DNA from: Paramecium tetraurelia
Taxonomy: Eukaryota
Assembly: GCA_000165425.1 (NCBI GenBank)
Contig: CT868006.1
Span: forward strand, 1 to 64,000
Length of the DNA stretch: 64,000 bases
Direction: 5' to 3'
Shown piece after piece: positions 13,513-61,028 of this stretch. How positions within the stretch are numbered: the first letter of the stretch is position 1; each line of letters starts with the position of its first letter. The notes beneath the pieces were generated by a model. It saw only the letters and a program-made list of their open reading frames with translations, was not told where the DNA came from and did not search any database. Both the position numbers and the translations under genes were made by a program.

Positions 13513-14340
13513 ATGTTACAAACACTTCAAACTGAATTAAATAATATGCAGACCAAAAGTAAATAATAAGATCAGAGAGTAGAGAATTTGTATATTAGTT
13601 TTTAAGAAATCTATTAAATCAAAAATAATTTAAATAACCCATGTTCAACGAAGCATAATATGCTATATTAGGTAAGACCAGAAGTTTTCAATTAAATATT
13701 AATATTTTTAGATATTAAACAAATTTTACAATTTAGATTGGTAAGCAGAAGAGCCAAAGAAACTGTAAAATTACTGCTTCCGAAATAAATAAATAATTTA
13801 TAGTAATTAATAGATGAATAATAAAATGACATACAAATTAAGATATAAAGTGCATAGCAGGCAGGCAACGATCAAGATTAGCGATAAGGTTTGCAAGCAG
13901 CTTTGGATGGGATATCCTTACTTTCTAGAGCACATTTTGTTGAGTTAAGATGCTAAGCTAAACCTCATGAATTAATTGAGAAGATCATAAATCTAGTTTG
14001 CTTGGCTTTAGATCCAGCATTCAAAGTAGCAAAAGATAATTGGAAGGAATGCATAAAATATTTAGGTCAATAAAGTTTTATAGAACTAATTTTAAATTTC
14101 AATATTAGTAGCTTAAATAATAAACAGTTATAACAACTAGAATAGGTTAATAATATTACAGAACAATAAGTAGCTTCAAAGTCATTAGTTGCTAGTTCTT
14201 TACTAATTTTTTTGAAAGCTGTTGTTGAATTAAGGTAATCTAAGCTTTACATGACATAAAATGAGATAAAAGAATTAGAGAGCAAAATAAAAAAAGAGCA
14301 AAAATTAATTGACAAGATAGAAAAGATACATAATTAATGA
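13513..14340 (+). CDS. 275-aa F-box-like + dynein stalk microtubule-binding-like protein, copy 1
   Basis: Intronless 828-nt code-6 ORF; VRPEVFNQILIFLDIKQILQFRLVSRR (F-box-like); AALDGISLLSRAHFVELRCQAKPHELIEKIINLVCLAL...DNWKECIKYL (dynein MTBD-like). Confidence 0.8.
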
Positions 14341-14727
14341 GAATTAGTTGATTAAAAATATGACAAAATTATTTTACTTGGCATTCTTATTTTTGTTATA
14401 AAAAAATTATTTCTAACTCCTTCTAATTTAGTCATTCCCTAAATGTAAATACATTTTAACCAAATAGTTTTAATATTTTCTTATAATAAAACGAATGATG
14501 TATAAATATTTAAATTATACGAATAGTAATAACTGAATAATACAATTTAATAAGTATAAATAGTATTAACTCAATAAAAAAACAAATTATGTTTAGTTAT
14601 TCAAAATAAAATTATCGTGTAAACTGAATAAGACACATTTATTCAAAAAATATGAATAGTCTTAATACAATAATAAAACTATTTTCAAATTATATTTATA
14701 TAAATGATAAGTTAAATTGAATTGTAA

Positions 14728-14835
14728 AACTAAGTTTGTATATTTATTCAAATTATTTATCTTAGGATAAATATTATTAATAATTCAAATCTATAACTAA
14801 GTTCTATATATATTCAAATTATTTATTTTAGGATA
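14728..14835. repeat. Imperfect 41-42 bp direct repeat (2 copies) between the tandem paralogs
   Basis: aactaagtttgtatatttattcaaattatttatcttaggata (14728) vs aactaagttctatatatattcaaattatttattttaggata (14795). Confidence 0.7.
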
Positions 14836-14977
14836 TTCAATGAGCCTGATAATTTTTTTTAATATTATATTTTTCATTTTCATTTTCATTTGACTTATGA
14901 TTTCATTATATTTATTTATATTTTAAAGTCATTATTATTAATTCAATTATTATAATTTTAATTGAAAAATTAATCAA

Positions 14978-15805
14978 ATGTTACAAACACTTTAAACTGT
15001 TTTAAATAATATGCAGACCAAAAGTAAATAATCAGATCAGAGAATAGAGAATTTGTATGTTAGTTTTTAAGAAATCTATTAAATCAAAAATAATTTAAAT
15101 AATCCATGTTCAACTAAGCATAATATGCTATATTAGGTAAGACCAGAAGTTTTCAATTAAATATTAATATTTTTAGATATTAAACAAATTTTACAATTTA
15201 GATTGGTAAGCAGAAGAGCCAAAGAAACTGTAAAATTACTGCTTCCGAAATAAATACATAATTTATAGTAGTTAATAGATGAATAATAAAATGACATATA
15301 AATTAAGATATAAAGTGCATAGCAGGCAGGCAACGATCAAGATTAGCGATAAAGTTTGTAAGCAGCTTTGGATGGAATAGCAAGAATTAATAAAGCTCAT
15401 ATTGTTGAGCTGAAAAGCTTTGCCAGACCACCTGAATTAGTTGAAAAGATTATTAATTTAACTTGCTTTGCTTTAGATCCGACTTTTAAAATGTAAAAAG
15501 ATAATTGGAAGGAATGCATAAAGTACCTAAATTAATACAACGTTATAGAACTCCTTAAAACTCATGATATTAGTAGCATAAGCGAAAAACAGATATAATA
15601 GCTTGAATAGGTTAAGAGTATTTCAGAATAATAAGCAGCTGCAATTTCTCTAGTCGCAAGTTCTATCCTCATTTATTTGAAAGCTGTGTTAGAATTAAGA
15701 TAGTCTTAAGTTTACGTGAATTAACATGCAATAAAAGAATTAGAAAGCAAAGTAAAGAAAGAAAAACAATTGATTGATGAACTAGGAAAGATCATTAATA
15801 ATTGA
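14978..15805 (+). CDS. 275-aa F-box-like + dynein stalk microtubule-binding-like protein, copy 2
   Basis: Intronless 828-nt ORF, tandem paralog; ALDGIARINKAHIVELKSFARPPELVEKIINLTCFAL...WKECIKYL...AAAISLVASSILIYLKAVLEL. Confidence 0.8.
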
Positions 15806-16075
15806 GAATCAGTTTATTATACCAAAATTATAAACAATAAAACTAGAAGAAATAGAATTTCTAATTTTATCTTTCTTTAGTAAATTGACTTTTAAAGTAT
15901 GATCCATAATGCACTTTCAATTAAAATTCCTCTTCTTATGACACTAATTATTTTCTGGGTATTATTAGTGTTATTTCATTTCATCATAAATGTTACTTAA
16001 ATTTCAATTTTTTATTCTAAAATGAGAAAAGAATACAATAGCAGGTGACAAAGTTGTATGAAATCTTAGCAAATA

Positions 16076-18024
16076 AATGAAATATAAATTTAGAAATGTC
16101 AAATAGAGTAACCAAATAGATATGTATGTTCGGAGAATAATAAGTGAAAATGCAGTTTAGATGACTTCAGAATCTTAAAATTAGATGGAAGTAGATATGA
16201 CTGAAGGGAAGTTTAATGAATTATTTTATATTTATTGTTAGAAAAAGATAATTTTAACAAAACAAAATGTAAGATTATTAATCATAGAGGAGGTGGATAG
16301 ATAATTTAAGAGACTGAATAATTTGAGTAGAGCTTAGATTCAAAAATTAATATAGGAACTTAGGTATTATAAAAAGAGAAATAGAAATTATGAAATAAAA
16401 ATAAAAAAAAATAAAAATTTGATGTCAATAATGGTAGATTAATTTTACAATTTATATGATAATCAATAAAATTACGCTTTGAAAAAGCATCCTTATTAAT
16501 TATTATAATATTATTAGGAATTTTCGACATATTTACAATCTACAAAAAGCTTTATGATTATTAGAACATATTTAATATAATTAATTATTTATAGAATCAC
16601 TATTATTAACAGAAATGTAATAGGAAACACAAAACAAGAAAATCACCTTTAAATTTCTTAATGTATTGAGAATTTATATATTAGTAATTGAAACTTATGA
16701 TCAAGCCATCTTAATAAATAGTGTAGATCACTCATGCATTCGTAACAATATTAAGTGGAACAATAGCATCAATTCAAGGAAATTAAATAAAGTCTGAATG
16801 GTAGTCAATAAAACATTGTTTACGAAATACAAATGAGATTCTGGAAATTATTAATGATACACAAACATTTTAAAAAAGGGTACGTTTCGAAAATCTAGAG
16901 AAATCAATGTAGATTTTATAATCAATTCAATAATAAAGCGAAGATGAGTAAAGAGATGAGACATTTGACATAATACAAGAAGCTTTGAACTAGTTATTAA
17001 CTATTGCAAAGCCTTTGTTTAAAAATCTACTATTGTGTAAAAGAAGCAATTCAAGAAATAGATCATTAAGTTAATAAGGTTTTGAGAAAGCTAATTAACT
17101 TCAATAATCCTAGAAGTCATTCAGCAATAAGACCAATATCTCTTAATCTTAATTAAATCAAAGTAATAGCAAAATCAATAGACCCAAAAGTCAATAATCA
17201 AATCTTAGTTGTAGTCGTTCTTCATCAAAATCTAAAGACTATTAATAACGAGTGATAGAAGCTCAAATTAAAAAAGTAAATTTTACATTAAAGGTAGCAA
17301 TCAAGATTGGACAGGATATTAAAATTGCAGACCAATAAGCCGTCAGCAACTTCGTAGATAAAAAAAATGATTGAGGGTTAATAATCATTAAATAGATCAT
17401 ATAGATCAAATAGCAAGGAATCGTTAATGAAATAGGAAATTGAGAAAAACAAATCAATAATTAAGAAATTGAAATAATAAGAAAATTCAATCAANNNNNN
17501 NNNNNNNNNNNNNNNNNNNNNNNNNNNNNNNNNNNNNNNNNNNNNNNNNNNNNNNNNNNNNNNNNNNNNNNNNNNNNNNNNNNNNNNNNNNNNNNNNNNN
17601 NNNNNNNNNNNNNNNNNNNNNNNNNNNNNNNNNNNNNNNNNNNNTTTTTCCTTAATAATTGTGTCTCAACTGTGTGGGCCAGATGATCAAATGGGAAATA
17701 GAAAGAGAAAGTAAAAGAATTAGAGAAAATGAAAAAGTGAATTAAATTCAAGATGAAATTAATAGATATAAGATAAGTTGGTTAAAAGATTAAGAAATTA
17801 AATAGGAAAAAAGAAAAAGTAGTAAAAAATAAAAATGTTTTAACAAACAAAATAGTACAAATAACGGGAGTTGGAGAAATAATTCTATCAATTACGATGA
17901 AAATAAAGATAGCAGTTTGAAACAGGACCTTTTGTTATCTGAAAAAGTCAAAAATGAAAAGGAATAATCTTTAAGTAAAATATTAAAAACAATCAATAAT
18001 TCTAAATAGAAATAGTTGAAATGA
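16076..18024 (+). pseudogene. Coiled-coil / Q-K-rich hypothetical gene, interrupted by stops and an assembly gap
   Basis: Purine-rich coding-like composition with several in-frame TGAs; no clean model found. Confidence 0.3.
17495..17644. other. Assembly gap (N run)
   Basis: Run of N. Confidence 1.
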
Positions 18025-18053
18025 GGCATAATCTATTATTTTAATATTTTATT

Positions 18054-19350
18054 TCATTTTTCCTTTTTAACAATATTAAATAATTCTGTTTTTCTTATAT
18101 TATTAATTACTTCCTATGTAATTTAATCTAAGCTAATATTTGAGATCAAATATTTTAAATACGCACAGATAAAAATACCAGAATCGTTTGGTTAAGCTAA
18201 TTAAGGACATTCAGATATAATAATATCTTTTGACTTCCAAGAGATTGTCAAATTATATTGTTTGACGATTGGTTCAATCATATTCCATATATGCTTGCAA
18301 GTTGTAACATAAAATATTGCCTTTTTTTTAGAACAACTATCATAAACCTTCATTTTTATATCCTAACCTTCAAAAAGTAATTCTAGTAGAATCCAATGGC
18401 CATTTGAATTGACAATAACAAAGATTTGTTAATAAACTTACCAAAATTATCCTTTAAAATAAGAAAATTCAGCAAAATAATTAAGTATATCTATTTTTTG
18501 TTATTCAAATAAGAAATAAGGAATAATGAGAGTTCTTTTATATGCTTATATTTCAGCTAGTGACTTTAGATTAAAGAACTTTTCTGAATCAATATAATTT
18601 ATGTAGTTAAGATACGCTTCTATGATTGAATCATTTATGGCCTTTTCTGACAAAAGAGAAGAAAGATGATCTTTACTTAATTCAACATCGAACTTGGTCC
18701 ATTTGTCATTCTATTTAACTTACGGCTTTTATTATTAGGGTTAAGGTGGTGTTTATTTTACTCCTGATTTGATTCTAAATGTTTTATTGGTACTTCGATC
18801 TTCTTGAATAAAGGATTATTGCAACATTGATTATTGCAAATTTTGTTATTTAATCAGTATGCTCCCATCCTAATTATATTCTTAGAATTTTTCAATCAAG
18901 GAAAGCTTTTGGAAAACCCCATCTACTTTTTTATTATTTGTTTTTCCATAGTATTCTGTTCCCCTACCATCGATTTAATCATTTTAAAATTAACCCTCAT
19001 AAACAAAATAATTGTTATTGCAATAGGCATCATATTGCTTTATATAGATTTTACCATTTCCATGCATTTTATTATTTTGAATTTCTCCAATATAAACATA
19101 ATCTTTTTGGATTATCATTTATTCCTTAGTATTCTTTTTTTAGACAATTAACTTAAATTATTTTGAATCCTGATTATCAAACTATTATTATGAATTATTA
19201 TTGAAGAAGATGAATTCAAATTTGAATTCTTAAGTTGGCTATTCTTATTGTTATTCTTAAGGAGGCTTTGATTCTTTTTTCAGTTTCAAACCAAGACGCA
19301 TAAAAATAGATATAAATATTATTAAAATATTAATTCTCTGAAATACTTCC
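18054..19350 (-). CDS. Ulp1/SENP (peptidase C48)-like protein, catalytic Cys replaced by Ser; start uncertain
   Basis: LLSEKAINDSIIEAYLNYI; VIVNSNGHWILL...VYDS; CPQLAQPNDSGIFICAYL; TGA at 18054. Confidence 0.7.
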
Positions 19351-19650
19351 CAATTGATTTTATTTTTCATATATTATTTTAAATAAAATGTTCCGAGTAT
19401 TCCTAATGTCTCTCTCATTCTTTTGAGGATCATGATATTCCGAAAAATCCTCTATTTTTTAATTAAATTATTGAATTATCACTTCCCTCAAAATGTCATT
19501 CTAATTTTGCAATTCTTCTTTAAATAATAATTTTAGCTTGAAGCTTTTACATAAACACTTAGATGGCTTAAAAGTTTTTACTTCAGCTACAGAATGTAAT
19601 TAAGTATTTATTAATTATTTTTTAATTAATTGTTTAAAATAAAAAAAAGC

Positions 19651-19724
19651 CGCCCTCCAAGGGGGTCGAACCCTTGACATTTGGCTTAAAAGGCCAACGC
19701 TCTGACCAACTGAGCTAGGAGGGC
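19651..19724 (-). tRNA. trnK-UUU: tRNA-Lys (anticodon UUU)
   Basis: GCCCTCC acceptor stem, D arm AGCTCAGTTGGTCAGAGC, anticodon arm TTGGC-CTTTTAA-GCCAA, T loop GGTTCGA; followed by a T8 Pol III terminator. Confidence 0.97.
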
Positions 19725-19889
19725 TGGATTAATTATTTAATTGATTAAGATTATTAATATTTCTTGATTTGTAATTTGATTCCAATTAAAATTTAAAATA
19801 GTTGAATAAATAAAATACTACAAATTTATTAATGAAAAGACTTTATAATTTAAAAATAATAATATCTATAATTTATAAGCATTTATCAA

Positions 19890-20704
19890 ATGGGATCAAA
19901 ATATTTATAAAAATATCCAGTGTCTGAAGGTTTCCACTAAATTTTACATGATTTTGCCAGAGAAGTAAGTAGTATTTTAGATTAAAGGTATTAAGAGATT
20001 AACCAGAAAATATTATAAAATATGGAGTTGATTATTTTGAATGCATGGTTTAAGAAAAGGAATTTAAATTTGAAAGCAAATACAACATTGCTAAAGGAAG
20101 CAACAGGCGAAGTGCAGTAGGTAATTAAATTAATAGAATAACATAAACAGTATGTAAGAAAAATAAAATAATTTATTAACCAGGAGTATACACAAATCCA
20201 CCTAACCTTCAAATGTGACTGGAATAGCAAAAAATATATAGTAGAAAAAGACCTGAATATAAAAATGGGTAAAAACTAGGATCTGGAAACGGAAACAATG
20301 TTCTTATATCAGTACTTTAGGAAGTTAGCCAAAAGAGAAAATAGCAGCATAAGAAAATGTCAATGATTTTTTATGTAAGATTGCAAACGATATTGACAAA
20401 TTTGAAAATAAAAATTAGATGATGAGAATCTGAATGATATTGAGGAGGAATCACCAAAGTTAACCAGCTTTGTAATTAAATAATATTAATATATTTAGGA
20501 TGTTAAAGACATGCTAAATATTATTAAAATTTAAGCAGTATCTATCTGAAAAATAGTTTGTAGAAAAGGAATAAGAAAAATAGTAAAAAAATTAGAAGTA
20601 ATTTTGTTAAGAGAAGGAAGAATGATGAAATTTAAATAAAATCATAATAAATAATTAAATAGATTTTTTATTATATAAGTTTTGTTATTAAAATTAATAG
20701 ATGA
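19890..20704 (+). CDS. RIIa dimerization/docking-domain protein (Sp17/ropporin-like); 3' end uncertain
   Basis: After removing a 23-nt intron: YPVSEGFHQILHDFAREVLRDQPENIIKYGVDYFECM; later IIKIQA (IQ-like). Confidence 0.7.
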
Positions 20705-20747
20705 AAATTTGTAAAATAGTAAACTTAAACATTTAAAATTAATAATT

Positions 20748-21572
20748 ATGTATCAATAAAAAATGCTATTAAAAGAAAAAATAGGAGATGGCTATTCAAG
20801 CAATCTGCATCTATGTGATTATCAAGGCAAGTAAAGTGTAATAAAAATTTACAAGGAAGATTATCCAATTAAACTCAGAAATAAGGAAATCAAAATATTG
20901 AAAAGTTTAGATCATCCTCATATCTTAAAAATGATTGATCATCATCCTGAGAACGACTACATTATTTTTGAATAACTGACGACTGATTTTTTTACAATAG
21001 TTAAAAATTAGAATAGATTGGATGTTAGAGCAGTGAAGTAGATCCTTATAGAATTAGGGGAGGCTATCCAATACCTTCACAAATTTAACTATGTACATCG
21101 AGATATTAAATTACAAAATCTCATGCTGAACAACCACTTACAAATGATACTAATAGATTTTGGCTTTGCTGATCTTGTAGATGACTAAGAATAGAACATC
21201 AGAAGTTGTGGAACATAAAATTATATGTCACCAGAATTACTAATTTCCTAAAAATACATACGATCAAATCTGTTGAAAAGATCTGACATTTTTGCCTTGG
21301 CTGTCCTAATATTTATTCTCTATTTTGGATTTCCTCCATTCTCTGAAGCTACTGTAAAATGTCCTTATTGGAGGTTGATCTCTAAAAATAATTGGGTGAA
21401 ATTTTGGAAAATAGTAAATAGAAATTCTAAATTAAATGACATCATATTTTAAGAATTATTTGAAAATATGATATCACCCAATCTTGAGGATAGATATACT
21501 ATTGAATAAGTACTGAATCATCCCTGGATTGATGGAAACCACGATTTAGGCTATTTAATAAATATTATTTGA
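20748..21572 (+). CDS. Ser/Thr protein kinase (CAMK-like), 274 aa
   Basis: IGDGYSS, VIKIY, VHRDIKLQN, IDFGFA, SCGTQNYMSPE, DIFALAV; intronless. Confidence 0.92.
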
Positions 21573-21593
21573 ATATATATATAGAGTTTTATT

Positions 21594-24500
21594 TCATTAT
21601 TCATAATATCCCTTAAATTTTATTATCTTGAATATTCCTACCACTTCATCTATAAATAAGCTCTAATATAAGTATGTTAAAAATAAATCACAAAATATTG
21701 AATCTAAGATAAATTCTATTAAAACACCAACCAACAAATACATATCAAATTTAAATTCCAATCCGTACATTTACCAAATTCCAATTATCATATTCCCAAA
21801 AAATAAGATTACCCATAATATCCAATAAAAGCCTAACACTTTGCCTTTTCTTTTCTTTCTAAATGCTAATGCTAAGCCTCCATATAAATAATTGCATATC
21901 CAAGTTTATATGATTACTAACAAATAATATGCAGTAAGCATTCCAAATTTGAATGGCAATGATGATAAATATACAGATGTAAATGTCACATACATCTAAA
22001 TTTAGATTATATAGAGCGATAACTTTTATAAAGAGAATTCTAGAGAAGAGGCTGTAAAAATGGCATTTATAGGATAAACACTCCAAAAATTTCTTGATTT
22101 CTTCTTATTTTTGACTTAACTCATTGGATTCTAAACCAAATTATTTCCAGTTTGCACTGTCTCATAGATATCAGAGAATTTCTTTGACTTTTTTTTTTTG
22201 ATTGGTCTCTTGTATAAAATGCATAGCAAAGTAAGAAAAGATAAAAACAACCCAATTAAAGTCATTGAAATGGCAAAAGCACTATTTTAGACAGTTTTAA
22301 CAAATTTGAATCCTTATGGTATTTCGAAAATGCTTGACAAACCAGATGAATTGGTAGTTACATTTTTAACTATTTAAACATAAGTACCAAAATCCCCTAA
22401 AGTATTTACTTAACAAATTGTGTAATACTTACATTTTAATAACGTGGCCTTAGTATTTTCCCAGATTTATTTATCTTCATTCCATTGTACACAAACATTA
22501 TTCTCATTAAGATCTGCATAATATTAATCACTTTTTGGAACAACAATAACCATATTCATTCCAGTTACTGGCAATATTTTTCCAGATTTTATTATTTGTA
22601 TTCTAGAAATAGTTGAATTAATAGTTTAACCAGAAGATCTATGATTTTAATAGTAAAGATGCATTTAGTTGAAAATTAAAGGAGTTTGTGCATCTGATTA
22701 CAGAATTTTAATTTCTGCAAGGTTCTCCTCTGTCAAATAAATTTATGGACTTAATAATTTTTTATCATTATCACAAGTACCATATGATTTAACAAAATTA
22801 TATTTAAATGCAGAATATGAGTCATCACTAAATAAATCAAATTTTCCTATCACTTATTTATGAAAAGGTCCTGCAGTATTTTAAATTTCTGAAATCATAA
22901 TATCTTCAGATTATTTTAATATTGCATTAAATAATGAATTATCCAGATTAGTTAATTTCTGAGCTGCAATGTTTTCCTATTAATATAAGTTTTTAGAGAT
23001 AGCTCCAATAGCAGTAAAGTATTTTACATCAAAATTTAAGGCGATTTATTTATCAAGAGCTTATTAGAATTATTTAATATTGCTTTCTGTGACTGCATAA
23101 GTAGTATCTGATATCAATTGAATTATTTCGACATAGTTTGGATCAAATATAGTTTGGGTATTCAAATAAGTCAGTAATTCAGTTTGTAATTTAATGAAAT
23201 CAGATGTAGTTGTGAATTAACATCGACTTCCTGATATATTCTAAATACATTTACAAGATATCAATAGACATCTACCATACATATTGCATTATTTATCACT
23301 CTGACAGAAAAAGCCTTTGGAATTAAGAGTACCTATAAATGGATAAGGTCCAAGACTTGAGGTAGAAACAAGGATGTTGCCATAAGCCAATGCATCATTC
23401 GAATTAGTTGCAGATGTCAATTAAAACCCAGATGTCTCTGATGTGCATTAACCATTATATAGGATTAATGAACTTTGACATTTTGTACAAGTATTCAGGG
23501 CAGTACACTGAGTACAAGTAACTGGACACTAAAGACAATTCTATTCCTCTAAATAATAACCATCCTTGCATTATTTGCAAGTATATTGATTGGTTGTTGA
23601 AGTATCAGATTATAATTCGCATTTATAACAATTCTATAAATTAATAATAGATCCAGAGCAATCTAAACAATAATAGGTAGGATTTGACGAACCTAATGAA
23701 TTATCAGTCAATTTCAAGAACCCTGGCAAACAAGTGTTGCATTAAAAACTACTTCCTAAATTAATACAAGTATCACAGTTTTCAAATAAAGAACCACACT
23801 TCATACATTATTACGTGCTAGTTAATACATATCCAGCTTCACATTTTTAACATATTATATTATTAGTTGTTCCTGCTGACATTGTGTTTAAACAAGTTTA
23901 ACAGCCGATATTAAAACCAGAACATAAATAGCAATACTATTTACTATTATCATAATAATAATTATTTGTACAACTTGTACATTTATTTATAATGCATTAT
24001 TCACAACTTGCATATTTAGCAGAACAAGCAGTACATTTCCCTTAGGGATTAATGAAGTAGCCATCTGAACACTTTGTGCATGTTGAATTTGAACAAGTAA
24101 CACAATTTGTCATCAAAGCTGTTTAACTTTCGCATTAACCAACACAAGATAAAGCATTAGATCCTTTGACATAACCTGTTTGACATTGAGAACATATTTT
24201 CTTAAAGATTTATGAGTCTCCACAAGTACTACAATATTTGATTGGACAGTTTTCACATTTTTTACCAATTAATATGTAATCACTAATGCATTTTAAACAT
24301 ACTGTCAAATCTTAATTAAATAAGAGACAATTCTTATCATCTAATGAACATAATTTATTTTCAGTAGATTAATAACCATCATTGCATTTGCCGCAATATG
24401 TCTTTTATGTTTCATCTATATAAAAGGTTGATCCAACTTAACAGTTTAAAATTTCAGGGAAACAAAATGTAGAGTTTGTATGTTTTGCATATCCAGTAAT

Positions 24501-25007: not shown

Positions 25008-25234
25008 AAGTATTATTTAAATTTCCTATTTATATATATTTTAATATTAAAAAGTCTTATATATTTGTGTAAAATTCAAATTTTATTTCCTCTCTTGCTA
25101 CACATTTCATCATAAACTTTAATAAGGCATATTAATTTTTCATTGGAGGTCAAATTAGCATATTTCACAAAAATTATTCTAATTAATGCATTATATTATT
25201 AAAATATATTATATAAACAACAATAATTGTAAAT

Positions 25235-26286: not shown

Positions 26287-26575
26287 TTATAAATAATGAA
26301 TATTTCAATTGGAAAGCATTTCTGAATCAATAAAAAAAATATTCTATTTAAAATTCTCACTTATATTTCAATTTTTTATTTGAAAAATGAAGAAATATGT
26401 CAAATCTCATGAATAGAAAAGTCAGGTAACAAAATTTTTTTCAATATTCAAAAACATATTTATGATTTAATGCAAAAAAATATTTTAATATTAGCAAGTT
26501 ATCAGAGTTTAACTCTGATTACTTCTGATTATTAAAATTATTTTATAATAGAACAATTATTATTTTAGAGAAAGC

Positions 26576-27565
26576 ATGTTTGTCGAAAGTACAATTCACA
26601 AAGTAGATGCAGAAATGGAAGATTTATCAGTTATAATTAAATAAAAAATTTTAAATGAAATCGAGGAGGCTTCAAAAGTTTATGAAATATCAAAAATTGA
26701 CTCTGATTTAAGAACTACATTGAAGTAATAAGAATACTTATGCAGATTAAGTGAAAACCTAGAAATATCTATGTAATCATTTATTCATAATTTTACTAGA
26801 TTATTCAATTATGATTATCCAAAAAGCAATCCTAAGTATTTTGTTTAGCAAAAATTTGAAAAAACCCCTTCAATTAATGAAGACACTTGGCAGATTAATA
26901 TATAAAATGAAAATACTGTATTGAATACTCTTTATGCAATTATTATTGAATTGTCACAGAACCCACTATGTCCTGACTTATAGATTTAGCAATAAATACA
27001 TGAATCAACTTAAGAATTTCCTACATCTATGGCCTAAATTTTGGATAGTTAGGAAATGAGTATTTTGAATAAAATATCAGATGAACATCATATGTATGGA
27101 AATCCATTATAAAATCTATTTGAAATAATGGAACAAAAGGCAAAGACAAATTTATCCTTATATAGTAATAATTTGATATAAAAAATATCTAGCAAAAGTT
27201 CAATAAATCTAGAGTGAAACTGAGGAACTCAAGAAGGATTTGAATATTATTTATAATAAATTTCAACAAGTCCAATAGGAAGCAAGAATATTAAATGCTT
27301 AATGTAATACTTTTCTGAATGTATATTGAAAACTATTCATTTTTAGAATTTTTCTTAATAAGAATTTAGAAGAATTTTGTCTGATAAATTGAGCAAATTG
27401 GATTTAATCAAGGAATAATTCTAGGAGTTACCAATGAAGGATACATTTGATGAAAAAGAGAAACTTTATAACCAATTTTTAAATAATAGAATAGAATTTC
27501 ATAAATGTAATTCTACGCTAATAATTTTGAAATAAAATATTAATGAATAGTCAAATATAATTTGA
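26576..27565 (+). CDS. Hypothetical protein, 329 aa
   Basis: 990-nt code-6 ORF MFVESTIHKVDAEMEDLS...; no recognised domain. Confidence 0.6.
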
Positions 27566-27663
27566 TTTTCCTTTAAAATAATTCCAATTTATGTTAAATC
27601 TATACATATAAATTAAAAAATGATATAAAATAATGAAAATATATATTAATTTATGTTATACAT

Positions 27664-28730
27664 TCATTATTATATTGATTATTGATTTTTCTCATATCTA
27701 ATTAATACCTTTCCTTCACTCATGTTTTTCTTATAATACTCTAAGCCCTCCTTAAATTCAGAAACATCAACTGTTTTAGCCACAATAGTTTTAAGATTAG
27801 TTTTTAGTAATCCTTTTAATTATTTCAACAATAAGGCCTAACTAATAATGTTTTTTGTTTTTAGATATGATGTTAACCAAAACCCAACTACTTTTTTGTC
27901 TTTGAAAATCAGATCCATAATGGAGACATTTCCAACAGGTTTCAAACTCAATCCTCCATAGACATAACAAGTTGAATGGTTGGGCATTGCTTCAAGAATC
28001 TAACCAGTTAATTCTCCTCCCAAGGCATCAAAGAAGACAGTTGCTCTAATTTCATAATGTAGAATGAATACCTTAAAGTCTAAGTAACATTTTTTAACTT
28101 TTCTATGAAATCAGCATCTGATTAATTTAATATGATATCTGCTCCTTCTTTTTTTAACATGTCTACTTAAGCATCTCTTCTGATGATATTAATAACTCTA
28201 ACACCATTAGCTTGAAAGTGTCTGATCATCATTCTTCCTAATTAAGAAGCAGCTGCTGTGTGAACAACAGCTTGAGTCTTATGTTCTTTTGCTACTTCTA
28301 ACATTGAAATCACAGTCAAAGGATTAACAAATGAGCAACAGGCCTCTTATAATGTGATATCATTATCTAATTCTAAGCAACCCAAAGCATCTGCCACACT
28401 ATATTCACCGTATGTTCCGAATTAAGATTGTGAATAGAAAGCCACTCTTTTTCCTACTAATCTCCATCCCATAATACCTCCACTAAATTATTGCATTCAA
28501 TTATACCCATTAGCAATAACAGTGCCAGAACCTTCGAATCCAGGAACACATGGAAATTATTTACCACTTGAATAAGCCCCATGCAAAAAGGCTATGTCTG
28601 AAGGATTGATTGGAGCAGAGTCTACCTTGATCAAAACTTAGCCTGATTAAGGTGTGGGAATTGGGATTTCCTTGACCACAGCTTCTTAACCTGGGCCTTC
28701 CAAAACAACTGCACGCATCTGAGTTTACAT
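27664..28730 (-). CDS. MDR-family (quinone oxidoreductase / enoyl reductase-like) dehydrogenase
   Basis: MRAVVLEGPG...VLIKVDSAPINPSD...VPGFEGSGTV; VNPLT; VHTAAASQLGRM; FFDALGG; tiny introns. Confidence 0.9.
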
Positions 28731-29028
28731 ATTGATATTAAAATATATATGGATTTTTAAACATAATTATTCCTCTTATATAATTTCTAAAATTCTTATT
28801 TCTGAGAAATATAATTATAATTAATACCCTATTTAGATTGAGATTTCATCATATTATCAATATATATATATAAGAATAAAATAATTTCATACAGGTTTGT
28901 AATGTTTTAATATAGTGTGTATATTGGATTAGTATGTTTTTTGTGTGATTTGGATTATTGTTTTTTGTATAAATATAATATATAATTTATGGAATTATGA
29001 TAAATATTATTTTATTTTTATTTTTTAT

Positions 29029-29178
29029 NNNNNNNNNNNNNNNNNNNNNNNNNNNNNNNNNNNNNNNNNNNNNNNNNNNNNNNNNNNNNNNNNNNNNNNN
29101 NNNNNNNNNNNNNNNNNNNNNNNNNNNNNNNNNNNNNNNNNNNNNNNNNNNNNNNNNNNNNNNNNNNNNNNNNNNNNN
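29029..29178. other. Assembly gap (N run)
   Basis: Run of N. Confidence 1.
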
Positions 29179-29199
29179 TCTTTTAATATGCTCTCTATG

Positions 29200-30796
29200 T
29201 TCCATTACTATCTTTGTTCTCTCATGTCCTTTAATCTTTTTTCTATAAATATAATATAGCATTGATACCATGAGACTCAATATTATTTTATTTTTATTGA
29301 TTCTACTATGTATCCTCTTTTTCCTTTTTAGCTTCTTTTTTCTCTTCAAATTTTTCTAATTTAGGAACTCTCTTTGCTTGATTACCAACTTACACAACCT
29401 CCATTTTGCCAGGATAACGAACTTAGCCTTTATGTTCTTGTAAGTATTATTTGGACAATCTAAATATTGTAGATATAAGATACTTATCTTTATAATTATT
29501 TCTTAATTAGGCATGTATTTCCTTTCTAAACAATTCAAACTATCCAACCTACTCTTCTTTTTTGGTATCTTCCTTTTTTGGTTCTTCTCTTTTAGGCTCT
29601 TATTTAAAGATTTATTGATTTTCATCAAGAATTTTATTATCAATTTCTTGTATTTGAAACTCTTTTTCTCCTTAATCTGTCATCAAAACATCGTATAATA
29701 AAAGTTAACCAGGAAGAAAGGTTTCAAATAACATTTTGTTTTATTTAAGAGAATCTAGAAACTTCTTGCCTTCAATCAAACCTAGTTCATCATTTTTAAT
29801 TTCAATCTGTTTATCCATTTTAATAGTAGCCCATGAAAACTTTCTCATAGCTCTTTTGAAAGCCAATTCATTTTATAATGCTTATGAATCACTAGTTATA
29901 AGAGAAGTTTCCCTTGTAAAATTCTTTTCTATTCTTTTAATCATTTATTGAATATCATCAATAGATAGACATCCATCTTCATCAACATCACTTAAATCAA
30001 ATATCAATTCCAATTTCTTCTCTAATTCCATTCTTGCTAATACTCCAAGAGATAGTACTAAATCTTAGATTTCAATTTTATCATCAAATTCCAATTAAAA
30101 TCCTGAAATAATTATTGATAGTACTTTCAAATAGCTTTTCAAACAATGTTTCGAATTTCTTTCCAACCCAAATTTCAAAATATGTTTTCTCCTACTAAGA
30201 TTTCTCTTATTATGCTTTTTCAAATATTGGTTAAACATTATTTGATCTAAACCATCTTTCAAACAAACTATCCAATGCAGAAATCTTCATCTTTTTTTTA
30301 TCTGAATTATAATTAGTTCCAAACCATTTAAGAAATTATTAATCATAATTCTACTTAAACCAATTTTCAAAGGCTTAATCTGGTGGTTGATGTTTTTCTG
30401 ATTAATTATCTCGTCTCTAAGCAGGTTCTCTAACCAATTGTGTATCTGGATCAAATCTATATGATTCTGCGCATGATCTCTCAACGATGGCTTCAAAATC
30501 ATTCTTCATTTTATTCTAATATCTTGTGAATTCTTCAGGAGCCAAAATCAAAAAGAATTAAGAGGATATATAACTGTATTCTCTACTTTTGACGTGTAAT
30601 TTCAGTTATTTTAACATTTCTTTAGTGAAGTTAGATTTGGTCATTTTACCTTCTGATAAGTTACCTGATTCTCTGAATTCCTAATTTTGTGTATTAATCA
30701 TACCTTCCATATCTTTTTGATGAATACGTCCGATAAGAGTTTTTAAAATACTTCGCAAACTGCTGGATTAAGTGGTTCCTTAACTTATTAATTCAT
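29200..30796 (-). CDS. Hypothetical protein (3' end near or inside the gap)
   Basis: MNQQVKEPLNPAVCEVFQKLLSDVFIKKIWK, intron gtatgattaatacacaaaattag, long coding-like region. Confidence 0.6.
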
Positions 30797-30807
30797 TATT
30801 TATTAAA

Positions 30808-32072
30808 ATGATTGCCAATTAAAGAGCCATTTAAAAAAAGAGAAATATCCATAATATTATTGATAATGATGATGAAATAGGAGAGGTAGCAGAGTGGGCT
30901 GGAGTTTCAGCTGCTTAGGCAAAAGATGATGATGATTTCGATTTTGACAATAAATAAGTCTTCTAATAATCAAACGACCATATCGAATAAGCCAGATAAA
31001 AAATCAATTAGAAATTAAATAAGAAAGGAACTAATGTAAATTAAAGAAATGGACCTTTAGTCAATAATCTCAAAGACAAGGCTAAAAGTTTAGCATTATA
31101 GAATAATCAAAGCAATGAAGCCCCAATTTAACAACAATGTTAGTCTAGTGATGATGAAAATGAGAAACCTAGGGTTGATAAAGGTGAAGAGAGTCCAGAT
31201 AAAAAGGTTTTTAGATTGTCAGAGAGAAGCATTGGCAAAATAGAAGAAGAATTCGAATAAGCCAATAAAGTGAGAATGATGGATTTAGAAAAGAAGAAAA
31301 ATGAAGTGAAACAAATAAGTTTCATTGAGGTTTGGGATTAAATGAAGGGTTCTTAAGATATCCGAGACCAGATTGAATTTATCTAAAAAAAGACATCATT
31401 TTTAGATAAACTATTTGGATGTTTCAGTATCCATTTGAAAAGTAGTAGACTAATTTAAGAAAAAAATCAAGTACTATAATTCTAAACAAGGTTTGCTTAA
31501 TGTCGTAATTGTAATTCGATGATAATAACGAGTCTCATTTTAGAATTCTTTACACAATCTATTGCCAACTCATGACTACTGACTATTGTCTTAGATATGG
31601 TTCTCATTGGGAAATGATTGGATTTTAAGGCACTGATCCAGCCACAGATCTTAGAGGAGCTGGTATCCTTGGATTGCTACAAATACTTGCGTTCATATCA
31701 GAATATAAAATATATTTCAAGTAAACTCTGAAGATCTTTCAAGATATCAACATCCCATTCAGCATTACTCTAATCAACATTACAACCTTTGTATTAGTTA
31801 GTCTCAAAGACAATAAATTAAATTAACTAATAAATTAAGAAGATTCTGTTATCAGTGTTATAAATAAACTCTACTTTGCTGGGTTCCATTTATTAACCAA
31901 AATTCTTAAGAAGTATGTATTATGATATAATTATTAAAGAGAATAAATAACGTTCCATACGATAGGTGTTCATTTGACACATATAAGAAAGTAAATACAT
32001 GAACAACCACAGAAACTGATCAGAGAATTTCATTCAGATATTCAAAGATTTTATAAAATTAATAACGTCTGA
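30808..32072 (+). CDS. ELMO/CED-12 domain protein (ELMOD-like Arf/Arl GAP family)
   Basis: [43 protein letters not shown]. Confidence 0.9.
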
Positions 32073-32130
32073 CTGATTTATCTATAATCATTCATTTTTA
32101 AAACACTATTGTTATATGTTCTATATTTAT

Positions 32131-34236
32131 TCATTTTCTAAAAGCAATACAATAAGCTTTGCTTGCAAGATCATAAAATTTCTAAGCATCTTCATCAATA
32201 GAGATTACTTTAAATCCTATTTGAATCTATAATCCAAATGGATGTTGATCTTGAAGTTTCTTTTTTTTCAAAATAAACTCCAAAATTGCAACCACTTAAT
32301 TATCTTAGATTATTGGACCTGCAAACACAGGTAATATTGAGGATATGTCAATATTCTCATCAAAATTTTAATGTTTTGTAATCGAAGTGAGAATCTAAGG
32401 TCTTTGTGATTTGTACACTTAGTATGCACATCCTGATCTTATATCATAATATTATCCCTTCTTCTTGAATTTATTATTCTCAACATGTATTAAATTAGTT
32501 TAAGCTATTTAGAATATGCTATAAGCAGAGTCTTAGATCCTCATCTCAAAATCATCAAAATTTGTAGACTGACATAACTTGATAAATGAAGAGTAAAATA
32601 GATCTTGATATTTTAATTCCTTATACAATGCATCATAACTAAGTATGCTTGTTATAACTGACTTGCTTAGCATATTTACTAATAATCCATAGTATTAAAT
32701 ATCTATTATCATGTCATCATTAATATTTTAAATCTATGATAAATAACAAATAATTATACTTCTAATAAACCACATGGTTTCTTTGTATTCATCATGATCG
32801 GTAATAACAAAAAATTTTTACCATAGATTTTCGATCCTTCAGTTATGTAGAGAAGCTATTATTCTTTGGAGGGACTCTTTATTCCAAAATTCTCAAAAAC
32901 AATTTTCTAGAATACACCTTCTGTCAACAATGCTACTTATTATTAACCATTGGGATCATGAGTGTAAGCCTTACATGTCATGCCATCTATAATCCATAGA
33001 CGAACAGTTTCGGTTTGAAATATCATTTTGAATCCTTTACTAACGTGTATTTAGAAATCTTTGATATTTCTATAACTTATTAAAGTAATGAATTCATTCA
33101 TAATCTAATTAATCTTTTCACTAAATTCTCTTTAACTTATAAATTAGTCTTTATAAATGAAATAATTACTTGCAATTAAATTGATTAAGTCTTTTCTTTA
33201 TTGCATATTCTCTAATTAAATAACTTAATTTGTGAATACATCAGCTCCATGTTCAATCAAATCTATCAAGAAATCATTTTATTCAGATGTCAATTAGCTT
33301 AATCTGAATTCTAAACTCTAGGGTAGTTAATTTGGATCAAAAACATAATTGTTCACAAAGTTATCCTCGATTACTATATTATCTGATTTAGCTCCTACTC
33401 GTTTAGTTTTTAAATTATCCAACTTTTTGGATAATCTGTTGTTTTGTTAAATCAACTTCTGGTTCAATTCTTTTAATCTCTCAATTTCCTTTTCTCTTTT
33501 AATTACATTACGCTTTAATTGTTCATTATCTTTAACTAATTCAGATAATGTCATTCTCAATTCATCCTGATGGGTAGATAAATTCTTTTCTAAAATCATC
33601 TCTATTCTCTTTTCCAGACTTCGAACCTTTTTATAGTATTCTTCACAAAGTTATTTCTAATAAAGATAATCTCTCTGTAACTTCTATTATTCGATTTAAG
33701 TCAAATGTAATTTCTTAGATTAATCTATATTATCTTATTTAAAATGATTCTAAACCATATGAAATTAATTGTACTTATTGTTCTTTGAGTTATTGAATGA
33801 TTTATTTTTATGAAATGGTTTCAAGAGTACTCTTTATTTAATATACTTATTTTTTTGGTTCAACTCAATTTCATTTTTGGAAGCTTATTGCAATGTTACT
33901 GCCATTTACTATAGACTTTGTAGTATTTTACCAACCTCAAAAGATTGATTAGATTTAAGAGATTCAGCCAATTAATCGATCCAATGCAGTCTTTATTCCA
34001 GAATCTATCTTTACTATGGACATTACCATATTTGTGTCTTAACTAGAGTCTAATCTTCTAGATAGATTGTTTGTGGTTGTTCTTTCATCTGGTTAGGTTT
34101 TGGTGAATTTTTAAACTGAAAAATCACACTACTTTTTTGGTGTACATTAGGGTTGGTTTATTTTGTTTAACTTAATTTTAGGTCCTTTGAATAATTTTAA
34201 CATCTTACTCTCTAGAAAATAGGTATTAGAACTCAT
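32131..34236 (-). CDS. Coiled-coil protein with possible C-terminal GAF-like region
   Basis: Long code-6 ORF with tiny introns; FQTETVRLWIID and NFDENID...LPVFAGPIIQDNQVVAILEF resemble GAF motifs. Confidence 0.6.
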
Positions 34237-34275
34237 TTATTATAATTATATATATATATATTGTTGTTATTATTA

Positions 34276-34563
34276 TCATTCTTCAACGATCTAGTTTTTC
34301 TGTTTTTCCATAGTTTCTAAATATTCTTTTCTTAAGTCGTAAAGCAAAGAGTTTGCTTATTGATAATGTTGAGTCACTTTGTTCTGTTCAATAAGATTTT
34401 ATTATGATTGTCTAATATCTGATTGATTATTACTATTGTTATTTTGCAATTAAACCTTTCTATGATTCCCATCTCTTAATGACATAATTTTAAACTAAGG
34501 AATTAAATTCTCTTCGTCATCCGATTATCTTAATTACAAATTTTGAGTTTCTTCTTCTTCCAT
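34276..34563 (-). CDS. Small hypothetical protein, 95 aa
   Basis: MEEEETQNLQLRQSDDEENLIPSLKLCHQEMGIIERFNC...IVEE*. Confidence 0.55.
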
Positions 34564-34625
34564 GATATTTTAATTTTATAAATAAATTAATCAAGTCGAA
34601 TTTTTGGCAACACACAAATAAAAAT

Positions 34626-36422
34626 ATGTTTTTGTTATTATTAATTGCTCAAATCAAAGCAATAATTCCAACCACATATTAATAAGCTTTAGCAGCTATA
34701 CAAGACGATCCAGATCATTTATCTTTGATGATGTTTATCAAACAAGACTCAGAAGATTCAAACAAAGCCTTGTAGATCTTAGAATAGCATTCCACTACTA
34801 TGTTGGATATATTAAATGTAAATATATCAATTTCAATAGATAAACAGATCTAAGTAATAGATTGTGATCAAATTACTAAAGAAGAATTAAATCACTTACC
34901 TGCTTGTTAATACAAGGAAAGTTTGCCTTTTGCTATGTATTTGATACCACCTGCTAATTCTGATCCAACCAAAGGTCCTATCTAACCGATCTAAAAATTA
35001 ATAACTAATTTCTCATTGTCAGCACTCAAGGAAGGATTCTTAGAAAATAGTCCCTAATTTTGGGAATTGATTAATGATGAACAATAATATGAACAATTCT
35101 TAAGTGATAAGAGATTAAACAAAGTGCTAACTAGAATAGCAACTAAACCTATTTGGTGGTATGGTATTACTTAAAAGTTCAGAGAGAGAATAGATGTAAA
35201 ACAAACCTACTTATTTAGTTTGCTATTGTAAATCCCAGATTGTTGAGTCATGATCTTGTGATTCTGAAATTAATTAATGGTTAGTATGTTGAATAAACTT
35301 ACAATGGTGCTAAATAATACGAAAGTTTAAGAGCGTATTTATCTGTCTTTGCAAGTGTATATTTTATTGGAATATTATAAGTCCTAAAGAATTATTAAGA
35401 GTTTGGATTCATCTAGAAATATTAATTCAACCTCAATAACAAATATCACTTCTGTCTAAAATATCAATTTTGATAATTAATGGGTCTTACTTTCCATCAA
35501 TAATCATTAAAGATTGAATAGTGTTATATAAGATATGAAGGGAATTTTTAGTGTTTACAATCTAATTGATAATTCTAATTCAAAGTAATTGTTAATTTAT
35601 CCTTTTTCATCCAAAAAGAATCCCATGTAGGTAGGTAATTAAAACACATTACAAATATGTGAAGAAATGATTGACTTTTTGAAATACAATGTCAATACTG
35701 ATTCCATACAATTGTTGTCTGATATTAATTCATTACTTACAACAAAACAAATTGTGAATGCTTGGTTTTTTAATAAAAATTATAATAAATGCCATTAATT
35801 ATGGGCATTGACATTTGCTAATAAATAAGAATACAAGAAAATTTTCACATTTCATATCATCTATGATCCAGATGATTAAATTAAAAAATAATTTAATATT
35901 CCTAAAATACCTTTCATAACAAGTTTAGAAATCACTGAGGGCTAGATTGCTTAAATAGATTATACTGAAAGCTTCAATTATTAAAATATTGAAGAATATA
36001 TTGATAAATTATACTAAAGATATTAAGTTAAGAATAAGTAAAGTCAATAATACCCATAAAATAATAAAGAGTTTGAATTTCTTTGTACTCAAGAATCAGT
36101 AAAATGTATCATAACCATAATCGACAGGAATAATCAAGTTGATGAAGATGTCTTTATTAAATCCATGAAGACCATCAATAATAACAAATAAATCTGGATT
36201 ATTCTATATGAAGATTGTCAATAACTGTTCATTTAGAAATATAAATTGTAAGTTCCATCCTTGATTTTATATGATGCCAACAATTATAAATATCAAATAA
36301 TGAAGGAATAATTTAATTTTGTTAATATAGATAAATTCATTAAATCAAAGAAAAGGAATTGGAAAGAGTTGGATTATCAATTTTAAATACAGAAATGTTA
36401 AATTAGAAAAGATGATTTATGA
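34626..36422 (+). CDS. ER-lumenal protein, probably thioredoxin-like folds, C-terminal KDDL
   Basis: Signal MFLLLLIAQIKA; tiny introns; ends ...CQIRKDDL*. Confidence 0.7.
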
Positions 36423-36509
36423 TACAATATTAATATAAATAAATAGTATTTTAATGTATTTAGTCTGATTATATTAACATTATATTAATTTTATTGAAAA
36501 ATAATTTAA

Positions 36510-37337
36510 ATGTTACAAACACTTTCGACTGAGTTAAATAATATGCAGGCCAAAAGTAAATAATAAGTTCAGAGAATAGAGAATTTATATATTGGTTTTT
36601 AAGAAATCTATCAACTATCAAATAATTTGAATAATCCAGGTTTAACTAAGCATGACATGCTAAGTTAGGTAAGACCAGAAGTTTTCAATTAAATATTAAT
36701 ATTTTTAGATATTAAACAAATTTTACAATTTAGATTGGTAAGCAGTAGGGCAAAAGAAACAGTAAAGTTAATTCTTCCAAAATATATAGATACTTTATAA
36801 TCGTTAATAGCTGAATAATAAAATGACATATAAATCAAGTTCTAAAGTATATAACAAGCAGACAACGATCAAAATTAATAATAAGCTATGTAAGCGGCGT
36901 TAGATGGATTAGCAAGAATTAATAAATCTCATATTGTTGAGCTGAAATCCTTTGCCAGACCACATGAATTAGTTGAAAAAGTTATTAATCTAATTTGTTA
37001 GTTACTAGATCCATCATTTAAGGTACAAAAAGATAATTGGAAGGAATGCCAAAAATTCCTTAATCAATCAAATTTTATATCTTAAATTATAAATTTAGAC
37101 ATTAGTATTTTAAGTGATAAGCAGTTATAATAACTCGAATAAGTGAATAGTATTTCAGAATAATAAGCAAGGGCAATATCTATAGTTGCAAATTCTATTC
37201 TTAATTATTTGAAAGCTGTATTAGAAGTAAGATAGACTAAAGTTTACATGACATAAAAAGCGATAAAAGAATTAAACAGCAAAATAAAGAAAGAGCAATA
37301 ATTGGTTGATTAGTTAGAAAAGATCATTAATAAATGA
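36510..37337 (+). CDS. 275-aa F-box-like + dynein stalk microtubule-binding-like protein, copy 3
   Basis: Intronless 828-nt paralog of 13513 and 14978; MLQTLSTELNNMQAKSK...VRPEVFNQILIFLDIKQILQFRLVSSR...HIVELKSFARPHELVEKVINLIC. Confidence 0.8.
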
Positions 37338-40877: not shown

Positions 40878-42888
<2,011 letters not shown>

Positions 42889-42977
42889 ATATATATACTT
42901 GGGTATCCACTCTAATGACACTTCTATATTAGATTATGTATAAATCATTATTATTTAATAAAATAAAAGTAATAATA

Positions 42978-61006: not shown

Positions 61007-61028
61007 GACAAATTAATTTATATAAAAT

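Follow-up and report, generated by a model that had tools for sequence, protein, structure and literature searches.

Three intronless genes on contig CT868006.1 of Paramecium tetraurelia

The first 64,000 nucleotides of contig CT868006.1 of Paramecium tetraurelia (GenBank assembly GCA_000165425.1), referred to below as the window, carry three genes whose predicted proteins appear to combine an F-box with the distal stalk and microtubule-binding domain (MTBD) of dynein heavy chains. Open reading frames (ORFs) were read with NCBI translation table 6, the ciliate code, in which TAA and TAG specify glutamine and TGA is the stop. The three genes, all on the + strand, are g1 (P0001, 13513-14340), g2 (P0002, 14978-15805) and g3 (P0003, 36510-37337), and each codes for 275 amino acids followed by a TGA stop. 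Genes g1 and g2 form a tandem pair in which g2 starts 637 nt downstream of g1, and g3 lies 20.7 kb downstream of g2. In-frame TAA or TAG codons number 23, 27 and 26 in g1, g2 and g3, respectively, and the g1 and g2 proteins share 79% identity over 275 gapless columns, the identities among all three lying at 71-79%. The likeness among the copies at the DNA level breaks off about 25 nt 5' of the ATG and, at the other end, at the stop codon; the G+C content measured in the window is 23-33%. The original prediction, made from the sequence letters, had described three intronless ORFs of 828 nt and 275 residues starting at 13513, 14978 and 36510; these were confirmed, and the motif strings quoted there correspond to the g2 sequence.

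When all of the 1007 six-frame pieces of the window were searched with a hidden Markov model (HMM) of the family and with filters switched off, only g1-g3 were recovered (E 4e-123 to 6e-121; g1, 4.7e-123), the best match outside the family being at E 0.094. Two other ORFs of 275 residues (60299-61126 on the - strand and 62894-63721 on the + strand) were considered as further copies and rejected, as their sequences are unrelated and the family HMM does not match them. An ORF located 3' of the tandem pair (16697-17374, + strand), which by eye resembles helices H2-H4 of an MTBD, was also rejected: hhalign gave a probability of 0.2, and neither PF12777 nor the family HMM, the latter with filters off, matched it at E<=10.

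Deposited P. tetraurelia proteins are 100% and 74% identical to the g2 protein across 76% of its length, by which the window is recognised as macronuclear DNA of this species. The deposited models for g1 and g2 (P0011, P0005) comprise 223 residues, start at an out-of-frame ATG and excise a 28-nt GT..AG piece (nucleotides 172-199 of the coding sequence) inside the F-box. Raw reads of 58 nt from three oligo-dT RNA-Seq runs (about 1/3 to 2/5 of each run) were mapped at >=97% identity to positions 13300-16050, which hold the tandem pair. In the three runs 57, 83 and 75 reads were obtained, and read depth was restricted to 13484-14403 (g1) and 15140-15875 (g2), with no coverage in the bins between the genes (14404-14955) or on either flank. 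All first mates lie on the minus strand, a pattern that most stranded libraries give for + strand RNA, and no spliced joint was detected on the tandem pair in any of the three runs. A contig of run X7 crosses 15133-15213 without a gap and so passes through the supposed 28-nt intron of g2. In g3, AGG stands at the position of the alternative ATG used in the 223-residue models, and the models from other species have 274-276 residues. The tandem pair is thus transcribed from the + strand and unspliced, and the 275-residue reading is better than the deposited models, which look wrong and whose error conceals the F-box in two deposited P. tetraurelia gene models.

For the three pairs of copies, the numbers of nonsynonymous (dN) and synonymous (dS) substitutions per site were estimated by the Nei-Gojobori method under code 6. 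Overall dS between copies is 0.40-0.58, and dN/dS is 0.29-0.33 for the whole ORF and 0-0.20 for the F-box; judged from their coding sequences, g1-g3 are intact functional paralogs under purifying selection. It might be argued that the ORFs have no function and are either duplicates in decay or artefacts of annotation, as the deposited g1 and g2 models lack the F-box and some relatives are truncated at 107-210 residues. However, the three 275-residue ORFs are intact with a dN/dS of about 0.3, full-length orthologs of 274-276 residues occur in four other species, stranded RNA-Seq reads are confined to the g1 and g2 ORFs and unspliced, and g3 does not possess the alternative ATG, so that this explanation is considered very improbable.

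Between g1 and g2, dS across five consecutive segments is 0.14, 0, 0.20, 0.79 and 1.10, that is, 0-0.2 at codons 1-135 and 0.8-1.1 at codons 136-275, and this mosaic pattern indicates a gene-conversion tract across the 5' half of the two genes. The longest run identical in all three copies has 81 nt and corresponds to codons 52-78, the core of the F-box. It is located on the + strand at 13668-13748 in g1, at 15133-15213 in g2, where it includes the 28-nt piece removed in the 223-residue model, and at 36665-36745 in g3. In 20000 codon shuffles a run of this length never arose; inside it the copies agree at the third position of 27/27 codons, compared with 162/248 elsewhere. Either three-way gene conversion or a constraint at the nucleotide level may account for it. 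As the run is common to all copies, one RNA interference (RNAi) construct should silence all three genes.

The N-terminal part contains an F-box by the threshold of Pfam

In the g2 protein, residues 50-90 (15125-15247, + strand) form the predicted F-box, within which residues 57-88 align with positions 7-38 of the 43 positions of profile PF00646. Scores for g1, g2 and g3 are 23.8, 24.8 and 21.1 bits, above the gathering score of 20.5 in all three cases, and by Pfam's own threshold this region is therefore an F-box, as had been claimed earlier for residues of about 50-90. PF00646 also matches 16/18 aligned family members at E<=0.01. Within the F-box, the columns corresponding to I62, F74, R75 and L76 are near-invariant in the family at about 30% identity, and F65 is invariant.

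In the full-length model of g2, the F-box helices comprise residues 50-53, 56-64 and 68-76. Since structure searches with the whole protein were dominated by the stalk, residues 40-100 were folded separately from a 16-row alignment, which gave a model with a predicted local distance difference test (pLDDT) value of 72.5 and helices at 50-53, 56-65, 68-73 and 79-99 in protein numbering. A Foldseek search with this model gave no match at E<=0.001; among the 35 rows listed, all at E>=1, 30 were Skp1/F-box or SCF (Skp1/Cul1/F-box) entries, 2 were cytoplasmic-lattice entries and 3 were unrelated. The model retrieved almost only Skp1-bound F-box chains, among them FBXO3, cyclin F, Fbw7, FBXL5, FBXO22, Skp2, FBXO31, FBXL17, FBXL2, beta-TrCP, Fbs1, SLY1, KDM2A, FBG3 and Fbl11, with superpositions of 1.4-3.3 Å, most of them 1.4-2.2 Å, across 30-44 columns. 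When VIA-align, a method independent of Foldseek, was run against 48161 representative chains, FBXO42 came out on top (Z 5.5, 2.8 Å, 52 residues) and F-box entries occupied 12 of the 50 rows listed, at Z values that are background for small helical models. Searching the N-terminal part against PDB by profile gave four matches, three of them F-box proteins, at E-values of 0.28-1.8. In the ESM Atlas, the nearest feature cluster (score 0.93) has an F-box in 53% of its members, which is taken as a lead only. Membership of the F-box family therefore rests on the Pfam threshold; the structural comparisons point the same way without being significant in their own right.

Directly before the F-box, the AlphaFold model places an amphipathic helix comprising residues 2-41 of g2 (14981-15100, + strand), in which 9/12 of the a and d heptad positions are hydrophobic versus a fraction of 0.33-0.35 overall. 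Candidate roles for this helix are pairing with the outgoing arm of the stalk or dimerisation. In Fbw7 and beta-TrCP a dimerisation domain likewise stands directly before the F-box. A prediction of self-association with two copies of the full-length protein gave a score of 0.00 against a mark of 0.32; it was run without controls and weighs neither for nor against dimerisation. With the canonical F-box proteins (Skp2, Fbw7/Cdc4, beta-TrCP, the FBXO class) the Paramecium proteins share an N-terminal F-box above the Pfam cut-off, whereas the canonical proteins carry WD40 repeats, leucine-rich repeats or another substrate-binding domain instead of a dynein stalk and MTBD.

The C-terminal part is related to the distal stalk and microtubule-binding domain of dynein

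An AlphaFold model of the g2 protein was calculated from the family alignment (mean pLDDT 83.2, predicted template modelling score 0.61). In addition to the helix 2-41, it shows helices at 79-116 and 121-135, seven helices within 139-241 and a last helix at 244-274. By profile alignment and with the help of this model, the C-terminal part of g2 was divided into an outgoing coiled-coil arm, CC1 (residues 91-135; 15248-15382), a six-helix MTBD of the dynein type supported by the VIA-align matches to MTBDs (residues 136-241; 15383-15700), and a returning arm, CC2 (residues 242-275; 15701-15802), all on the + strand. The Pfam family PF12777 of dynein stalks (cut-off 24) scores 26.0 bits in g3 and 20.7 bits in g2 and gives no match in g1 even at E<=10; it matches 13/18 family members at E<=0.01.

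Using a profile of the three window proteins, 32 distinct PDB sequences were found at E<=1 (best 7.7e-07), and all 32 are chains of heavy-chain length or MTBD or stalk constructs, one chain of 4583 residues being labelled differently by its depositor. With a profile of 18 family sequences the best E-value was 4.7e-16 (DNAH6, query residues 105-240). All 60 matches listed are again chains of heavy-chain length or MTBD or stalk constructs; 58 of them are labelled as dynein or as AAA+ ATPase, DHC-domain, IDAf-alpha or MKIAA0325, and two 9fqr chains are labelled otherwise. Query residues 94-273 align with residues 3258-3437 of the cytoplasmic dynein-1 heavy chain, 180 residues on each side. P151, W177 and S224, landmarks shared with heavy-chain MTBDs, are near-invariant in the family.

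Comparison of structures gave similar results. A Foldseek search with the full g2 model returned 35 matches at E<=0.001, the top rows all being dynein. In VIA-align, residues 49-275 of the model superposed on residues 3229-3444 of the entire mouse dynein stalk (5ayh) with a Z of 18.1, and values of 17.9 and 17.3 were obtained with the stalk of human inner-arm dynein d and the engineered chimera 3err_A, respectively. In the case of isolated MTBDs, the root-mean-square deviation (rmsd) ranged from 1.9 to 3.8 Å: 6l4p_B gave Z 15.7 (1.9 Å, 122 of 138 residues), further ones gave 14.8, 14.8, 14.6 and 14.5, and the microtubule-bound 6rzb_C and 6kio_M gave 13.7 and 13.3, the latter with 2.8 Å over 125 of 130 residues. 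Unrelated coiled coils stayed at Z<=8.8, save for one poor row (7jtk_C, Z 11.2) with an rmsd of 27.7 Å. Residues of about 91-275 are thus homologous to the distal dynein stalk and MTBD, as judged by sequence profiles and the predicted fold, and the earlier assignment of such a domain to residues of about 125-245 was borne out. Among the structural matches, residues 1341-1490 of 9fqr_Xl, from the bovine sperm 96-nm repeat, aligned with Z 11.3 and 2.6 Å over 124 residues; this MTBD-like segment lies nearer the N-terminus than is usual in heavy chains.

Even at E<=10, g1-g3 match none of the Pfam families for AAA domains or the dynein motor, in agreement with the earlier statement that there is no AAA ring and that the protein is not a motor. 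With 275 residues and without AAA ring, linker and tail, it does not belong to the dynein heavy chains. The likeness to heavy-chain stalks and MTBDs (5ayh and 3wuq from mouse, DNAH6, DNAH2, 6kio) consists of an antiparallel coiled coil and a six-helix head; whereas heavy chains have about 4500 residues with AAA ring, linker and tail, the Paramecium proteins keep no more of the stalk than its distal part, and their H2-H3 loop exceeds that in 4/5 of the listed heavy-chain alignments by 4-5 residues. A motor-less MTBD on a short antiparallel coiled coil is also found in chimeras with seryl-tRNA synthetase (3err, 3j1t) and in MTBD constructs (6rzb, 6rza), but these are laboratory constructs of fixed registry, whereas the Paramecium proteins are products of natural genes with an F-box at the base of the coiled coil. 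A passage in PMC6629372 describes the decoration of microtubules by an isolated MTBD on a short coiled coil.

The family extends across Paramecium species

An exhaustive search of representative proteins, covering 1.84 billion proteins, yielded 82 matches at E<=0.001. Besides g3, nine of them cover the F-box part, with the alignment starting at or before residue 59 of the query or otherwise: P0013, P0014, P0015, P0017, P0020, P0021, P0024, P0051 and P0075. Eight of the nine are Paramecium proteins, and the other is P0051, an unnamed protein of 300 residues with an F-box score of 19.4 bits (below the cut-off), a PF12777 score of 39.9 bits and a tail rich in K, P, S and T. No relatives of P0051 were found. 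An alignment search in a named collection gave only Paramecium proteins and P0051 itself. Full-length orthologs of 274-276 residues are present in P. octaurelia, P. pentaurelia and P. primaurelia, and more distant full-length relatives with 29-34% identity in P. pentaurelia, P. primaurelia and P. sonneborni; the relative from P. bursaria has 257 residues. In a maximum-likelihood tree of 21 rows, the window copies fall into a clade of 10 rows with a support of 99/99, at least four other lineages of the aurelia complex are separated, and P. bursaria and P0051 are placed on long branches. From these sequences the family comprises at least five deep clades across Paramecium species. The F-box and stalk/MTBD architecture given in the original prediction was upheld by Pfam, profile and structure comparisons, and the window does hold three copies, but their description as a three-gene family was too narrow.

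Database names of family members are automatic ('F-box domain-containing protein', 'Dynein heavy chain coiled coil stalk domain-containing protein' or 'unnamed'), and for one member both Pfam families are precomputed in databases. In the full-text literature, subscription journals and bioRxiv supplements aside, neither a fusion of F-box and dynein MTBD nor PF12777 outside dynein was found. The statement that no characterised protein of this architecture is known agrees with the literature searched, although automatic annotation in databases already assigns one or both domains to members. The protein is regarded here as an F-box protein whose C-terminal module is of a new class, and as a natural motor-less dynein MTBD.

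Motor-less MTBD proteins in other protists

Units of the MTBD were counted with an HMM built from the MTBD part of the family alignment. Among the 81 new representative matches, 31 have between two and five MTBD units in the absence of a motor; the multi-unit proteins that were scanned gave PF12777 scores of 86-217 bits and no AAA domains. Examples are P0016, P0018, P0025, P0033, P0026 (Picozoa), P0031 (Diphylleia) and P0047 (Yihiella), the named sources being Picozoa, Diphylleia rotans, the dinoflagellate Yihiella yeosuensis and an MMETSP transcriptome. P0016 has five MTBD units joined by K/R-rich linkers and is without a long stalk. P0050 from Cyanophora paradoxa (1945 residues) has a STAND-like architecture in which DUF4062, an AAA_16 NTPase and TPR repeats are followed at the end by one or two MTBD-like units. 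No paper on tandem-MTBD proteins was found. A kinship of this class with the F-box family was considered and rejected, as with the family HMM their domains score no higher (20-68 bits each) than those of true heavy chains (57-68 bits), and the better E-values for whole tandem proteins are due to summed repeats. The tandem proteins resemble the Paramecium proteins in having a dynein MTBD outside a motor and differ in possessing 2-5 units, mostly no long stalk, and no F-box.

Surroundings of the genes

The neighbouring genes are an unrelated mix, as expected in a eukaryote. They include genes for DUF4215 and VSP-like cysteine-rich surface proteins, two protein kinases, a MORN/Ulp1-peptidase protein, a kinesin, pieces of major facilitator superfamily transporters, an acyl-CoA oxidase and a YjeF_N protein, and neither Skp1 nor a cullin was found among the genes of the 64-kb window. 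The ORF 18054-19433 (- strand) combines a MORN repeat with a C48 peptidase domain of the Ulp1 type (SUMO-protease family). It has 459 residues, as has the ORF 32709-34088 (- strand); a segmental duplication was suspected, but the translations differ and Pfam matches occur only in the first. A kinesin motor-domain protein is encoded at 41086-42981 (- strand; PF00225, 318.7 bits) and followed on the same strand by a long coiled-coil ORF at 42978-44246. Runs of N, masked or unassembled, at about 2080-2600 and 17491-17650 appear as strings of X in translations.

A possible microtubule-docked ubiquitin ligase

The combination of domains can be read, as in the original prediction, as a ligase adaptor that works on microtubules. 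The F-box would bind Skp1 and thereby join the Cul1/Rbx1 SCF ubiquitin ligase, and the MTBD would dock through H1 and H3 at dynein's own site on the tubulin lattice. The rod formed by the coiled coil, 45-57 residues or about 7-8 nm long (return arm 31 residues), would hold the ligase end off the lattice, and the ligase could then tag tubulin or proteins seated on axonemal, cortical or spindle microtubules. As there is no ATPase to shift the registry of the stalk, microtubule binding would be constitutive and not cyclic. A single MTBD binds weakly, so that avidity from dimerisation would help. From the sequences and models, an SCF ligase docked on microtubules via a dynein-type MTBD is the reading that we tentatively prefer, with a confidence that falls a little short of even. 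A connection between an SCF ligase and the regulation of microtubules and cilia is described in PMC8441365, where SCF-Fbxw5 acts on kinesin-13 depolymerases. Fbxw5 differs in that it takes soluble substrates through WD40 repeats and possesses no lattice-binding domain derived from a motor.

In the yeast MTBD, salt bridges to tubulin involve K3117, E3122 and R3124 in H1, R3152 and R3159 in H3 and R3201 in H6, and mutating the positively charged residues among them lowers the affinity more than 2-fold (Nishida et al., PMC7042235). Yeast numbers were transferred on the HMMER alignment to 6kio_M by taking the first K of 'KK' as 3116; under this inferred numbering K3117, E3122, R3124, V3133, R3152 and R3159 land on the expected letters, and R3201 is outside the aligned part of 6kio_M. 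The equivalent of K3117 is position 139 of the window proteins (K, R and K in g1, g2 and g3; basic in 15/18 family members), that of E3122 is position 144 (E in all three; E kept in 16/18), that of R3124 is position 146 (K, R and K; basic in 16/18) and that of R3152 is position 178 (K in all three; basic in 11/18). Four of the five mappable salt-bridge positions are thus conserved in all three copies, and the H1/H3 interface with tubulin appears to be largely kept. K182, located one helical turn before position 185, is basic in 15/18 members.

Several observations weigh against the preferred reading. At position 185, the equivalent of R3159 in H3, the copies have N, G and N, and a basic residue is present in 2/18 family members. 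Two axonemal heavy chains have K or R two residues before the invariant serine of H6, whereas the window copies have A, S and A, and this position, 222, is basic in 1/17 family members; the H6 contact is probably lost. A proline at the stalk base of CC1, present in 5/5 of the listed heavy-chain alignments, is replaced by Q125 followed by S, G or A at 126, which suggests that the stalk junction is no longer built for registry switching. The PF12777 cut-off is passed in one of the three copies only, the structural evidence for the F-box is insignificant by itself (Foldseek E>=1, VIA-align Z 5.5), and RNA depth on the tandem pair is low, about 1-12. Between the copies, the MTBD half diverges faster (dN 0.18-0.26) than the F-box (dN 0-0.05), and its net charge is just +2, from which it follows that the ligand of the MTBD may have changed.

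Such a change of ligand would mean that the MTBD fold has been kept but repurposed, and that the protein is an ordinary SCF receptor whose head recognises a protein other than tubulin, with the stalk as a spacer. One of the five mapped salt-bridge residues has been lost, as has the basic residue of H6, the lysine equivalent to R3152 is confined to the window clade and one other member (together the 11 of 18), and the MTBD half with its low charge is the fastest-diverging part; substrate-binding domains of expanding F-box families often diverge fastest. On the other hand, the three H1 contact positions are kept in 15-16 of 18 members at about 30% identity, and the fold superposes on the microtubule-bound MTBDs 6rzb_C and 6kio_M with Z values of 13-14. 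In addition, PMC7042235 states that Dictyostelium dynein, which does not have either of the H3 arginines, still binds microtubules via neighbouring residues. A repurposed MTBD is therefore regarded as unlikely, but as an explanation that deserves weight.

An F-box does not always imply a ubiquitin ligase. PMC1712225 documents Skp1/F-box complexes outside SCF, namely Ctf13 in CBF3 at the kinetochore, Rcy1 and RAVE, in which the F-box protein serves as a Skp1-dependent structural adaptor. By analogy with Ctf13/CBF3 or Rcy1, the Paramecium proteins could bind Skp1 and microtubules as a structural tether without ubiquitylation. Ctf13, Rcy1 and RAVE have no sequence relation to the Paramecium family past the F-box and no dynein-type microtubule-binding domain. 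The 275 residues of the Paramecium proteins, however, hold no partner domain besides the MTBD, and complexes of this kind are a small minority of F-box proteins, so that a role outside SCF seems improbable.

The protein might also act chiefly through its MTBD, competing with dynein for its site on the microtubule or marking that site, with an F-box that shortens its own lifetime or no longer binds Skp1. By homology the MTBD would bind at that site, the low RNA depth fits a tightly limited protein, and other protists have motor-less MTBD proteins without an F-box. No part of the protein, however, is better conserved than the F-box, with the low dN and the invariant or near-invariant columns given above, which argues for a binding function that is maintained, and this possibility is rated as quite improbable.

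The preferred reading of a microtubule-docked SCF ligase can also be put in a broader and more doubtful form. The motor-less stalk and MTBD may target a cullin-RING ligase that reads the lattice at the dynein footprint and could both tag tubulin or lattice-bound proteins and compete with dynein, and the family may be one branch of a wider, undescribed reuse of the MTBD in protists, together with the tandem-MTBD proteins and the NTPase/TPR protein of Cyanophora. This version is conceivable, but we would lean against it.

Significance

According to the literature searched, the dynein MTBD has otherwise been described only within the motor of 4000 residues or in laboratory constructs. A natural family that is under selection, is transcribed and has the stalk and MTBD alone implies that the MTBD can work as a portable module, and it offers a small, tractable protein for asking into which affinity state a stalk settles when it has no ATPase. 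The tandem-MTBD proteins in many protist lineages widen this question beyond ciliates. Microtubules are the building material of the cortex and the thousands of cilia of Paramecium, in which RNAi by feeding and tagging with green fluorescent protein are routine. For this organism, the combination of F-box and MTBD suggests a way in which ubiquitylation might be aimed at the microtubule lattice.

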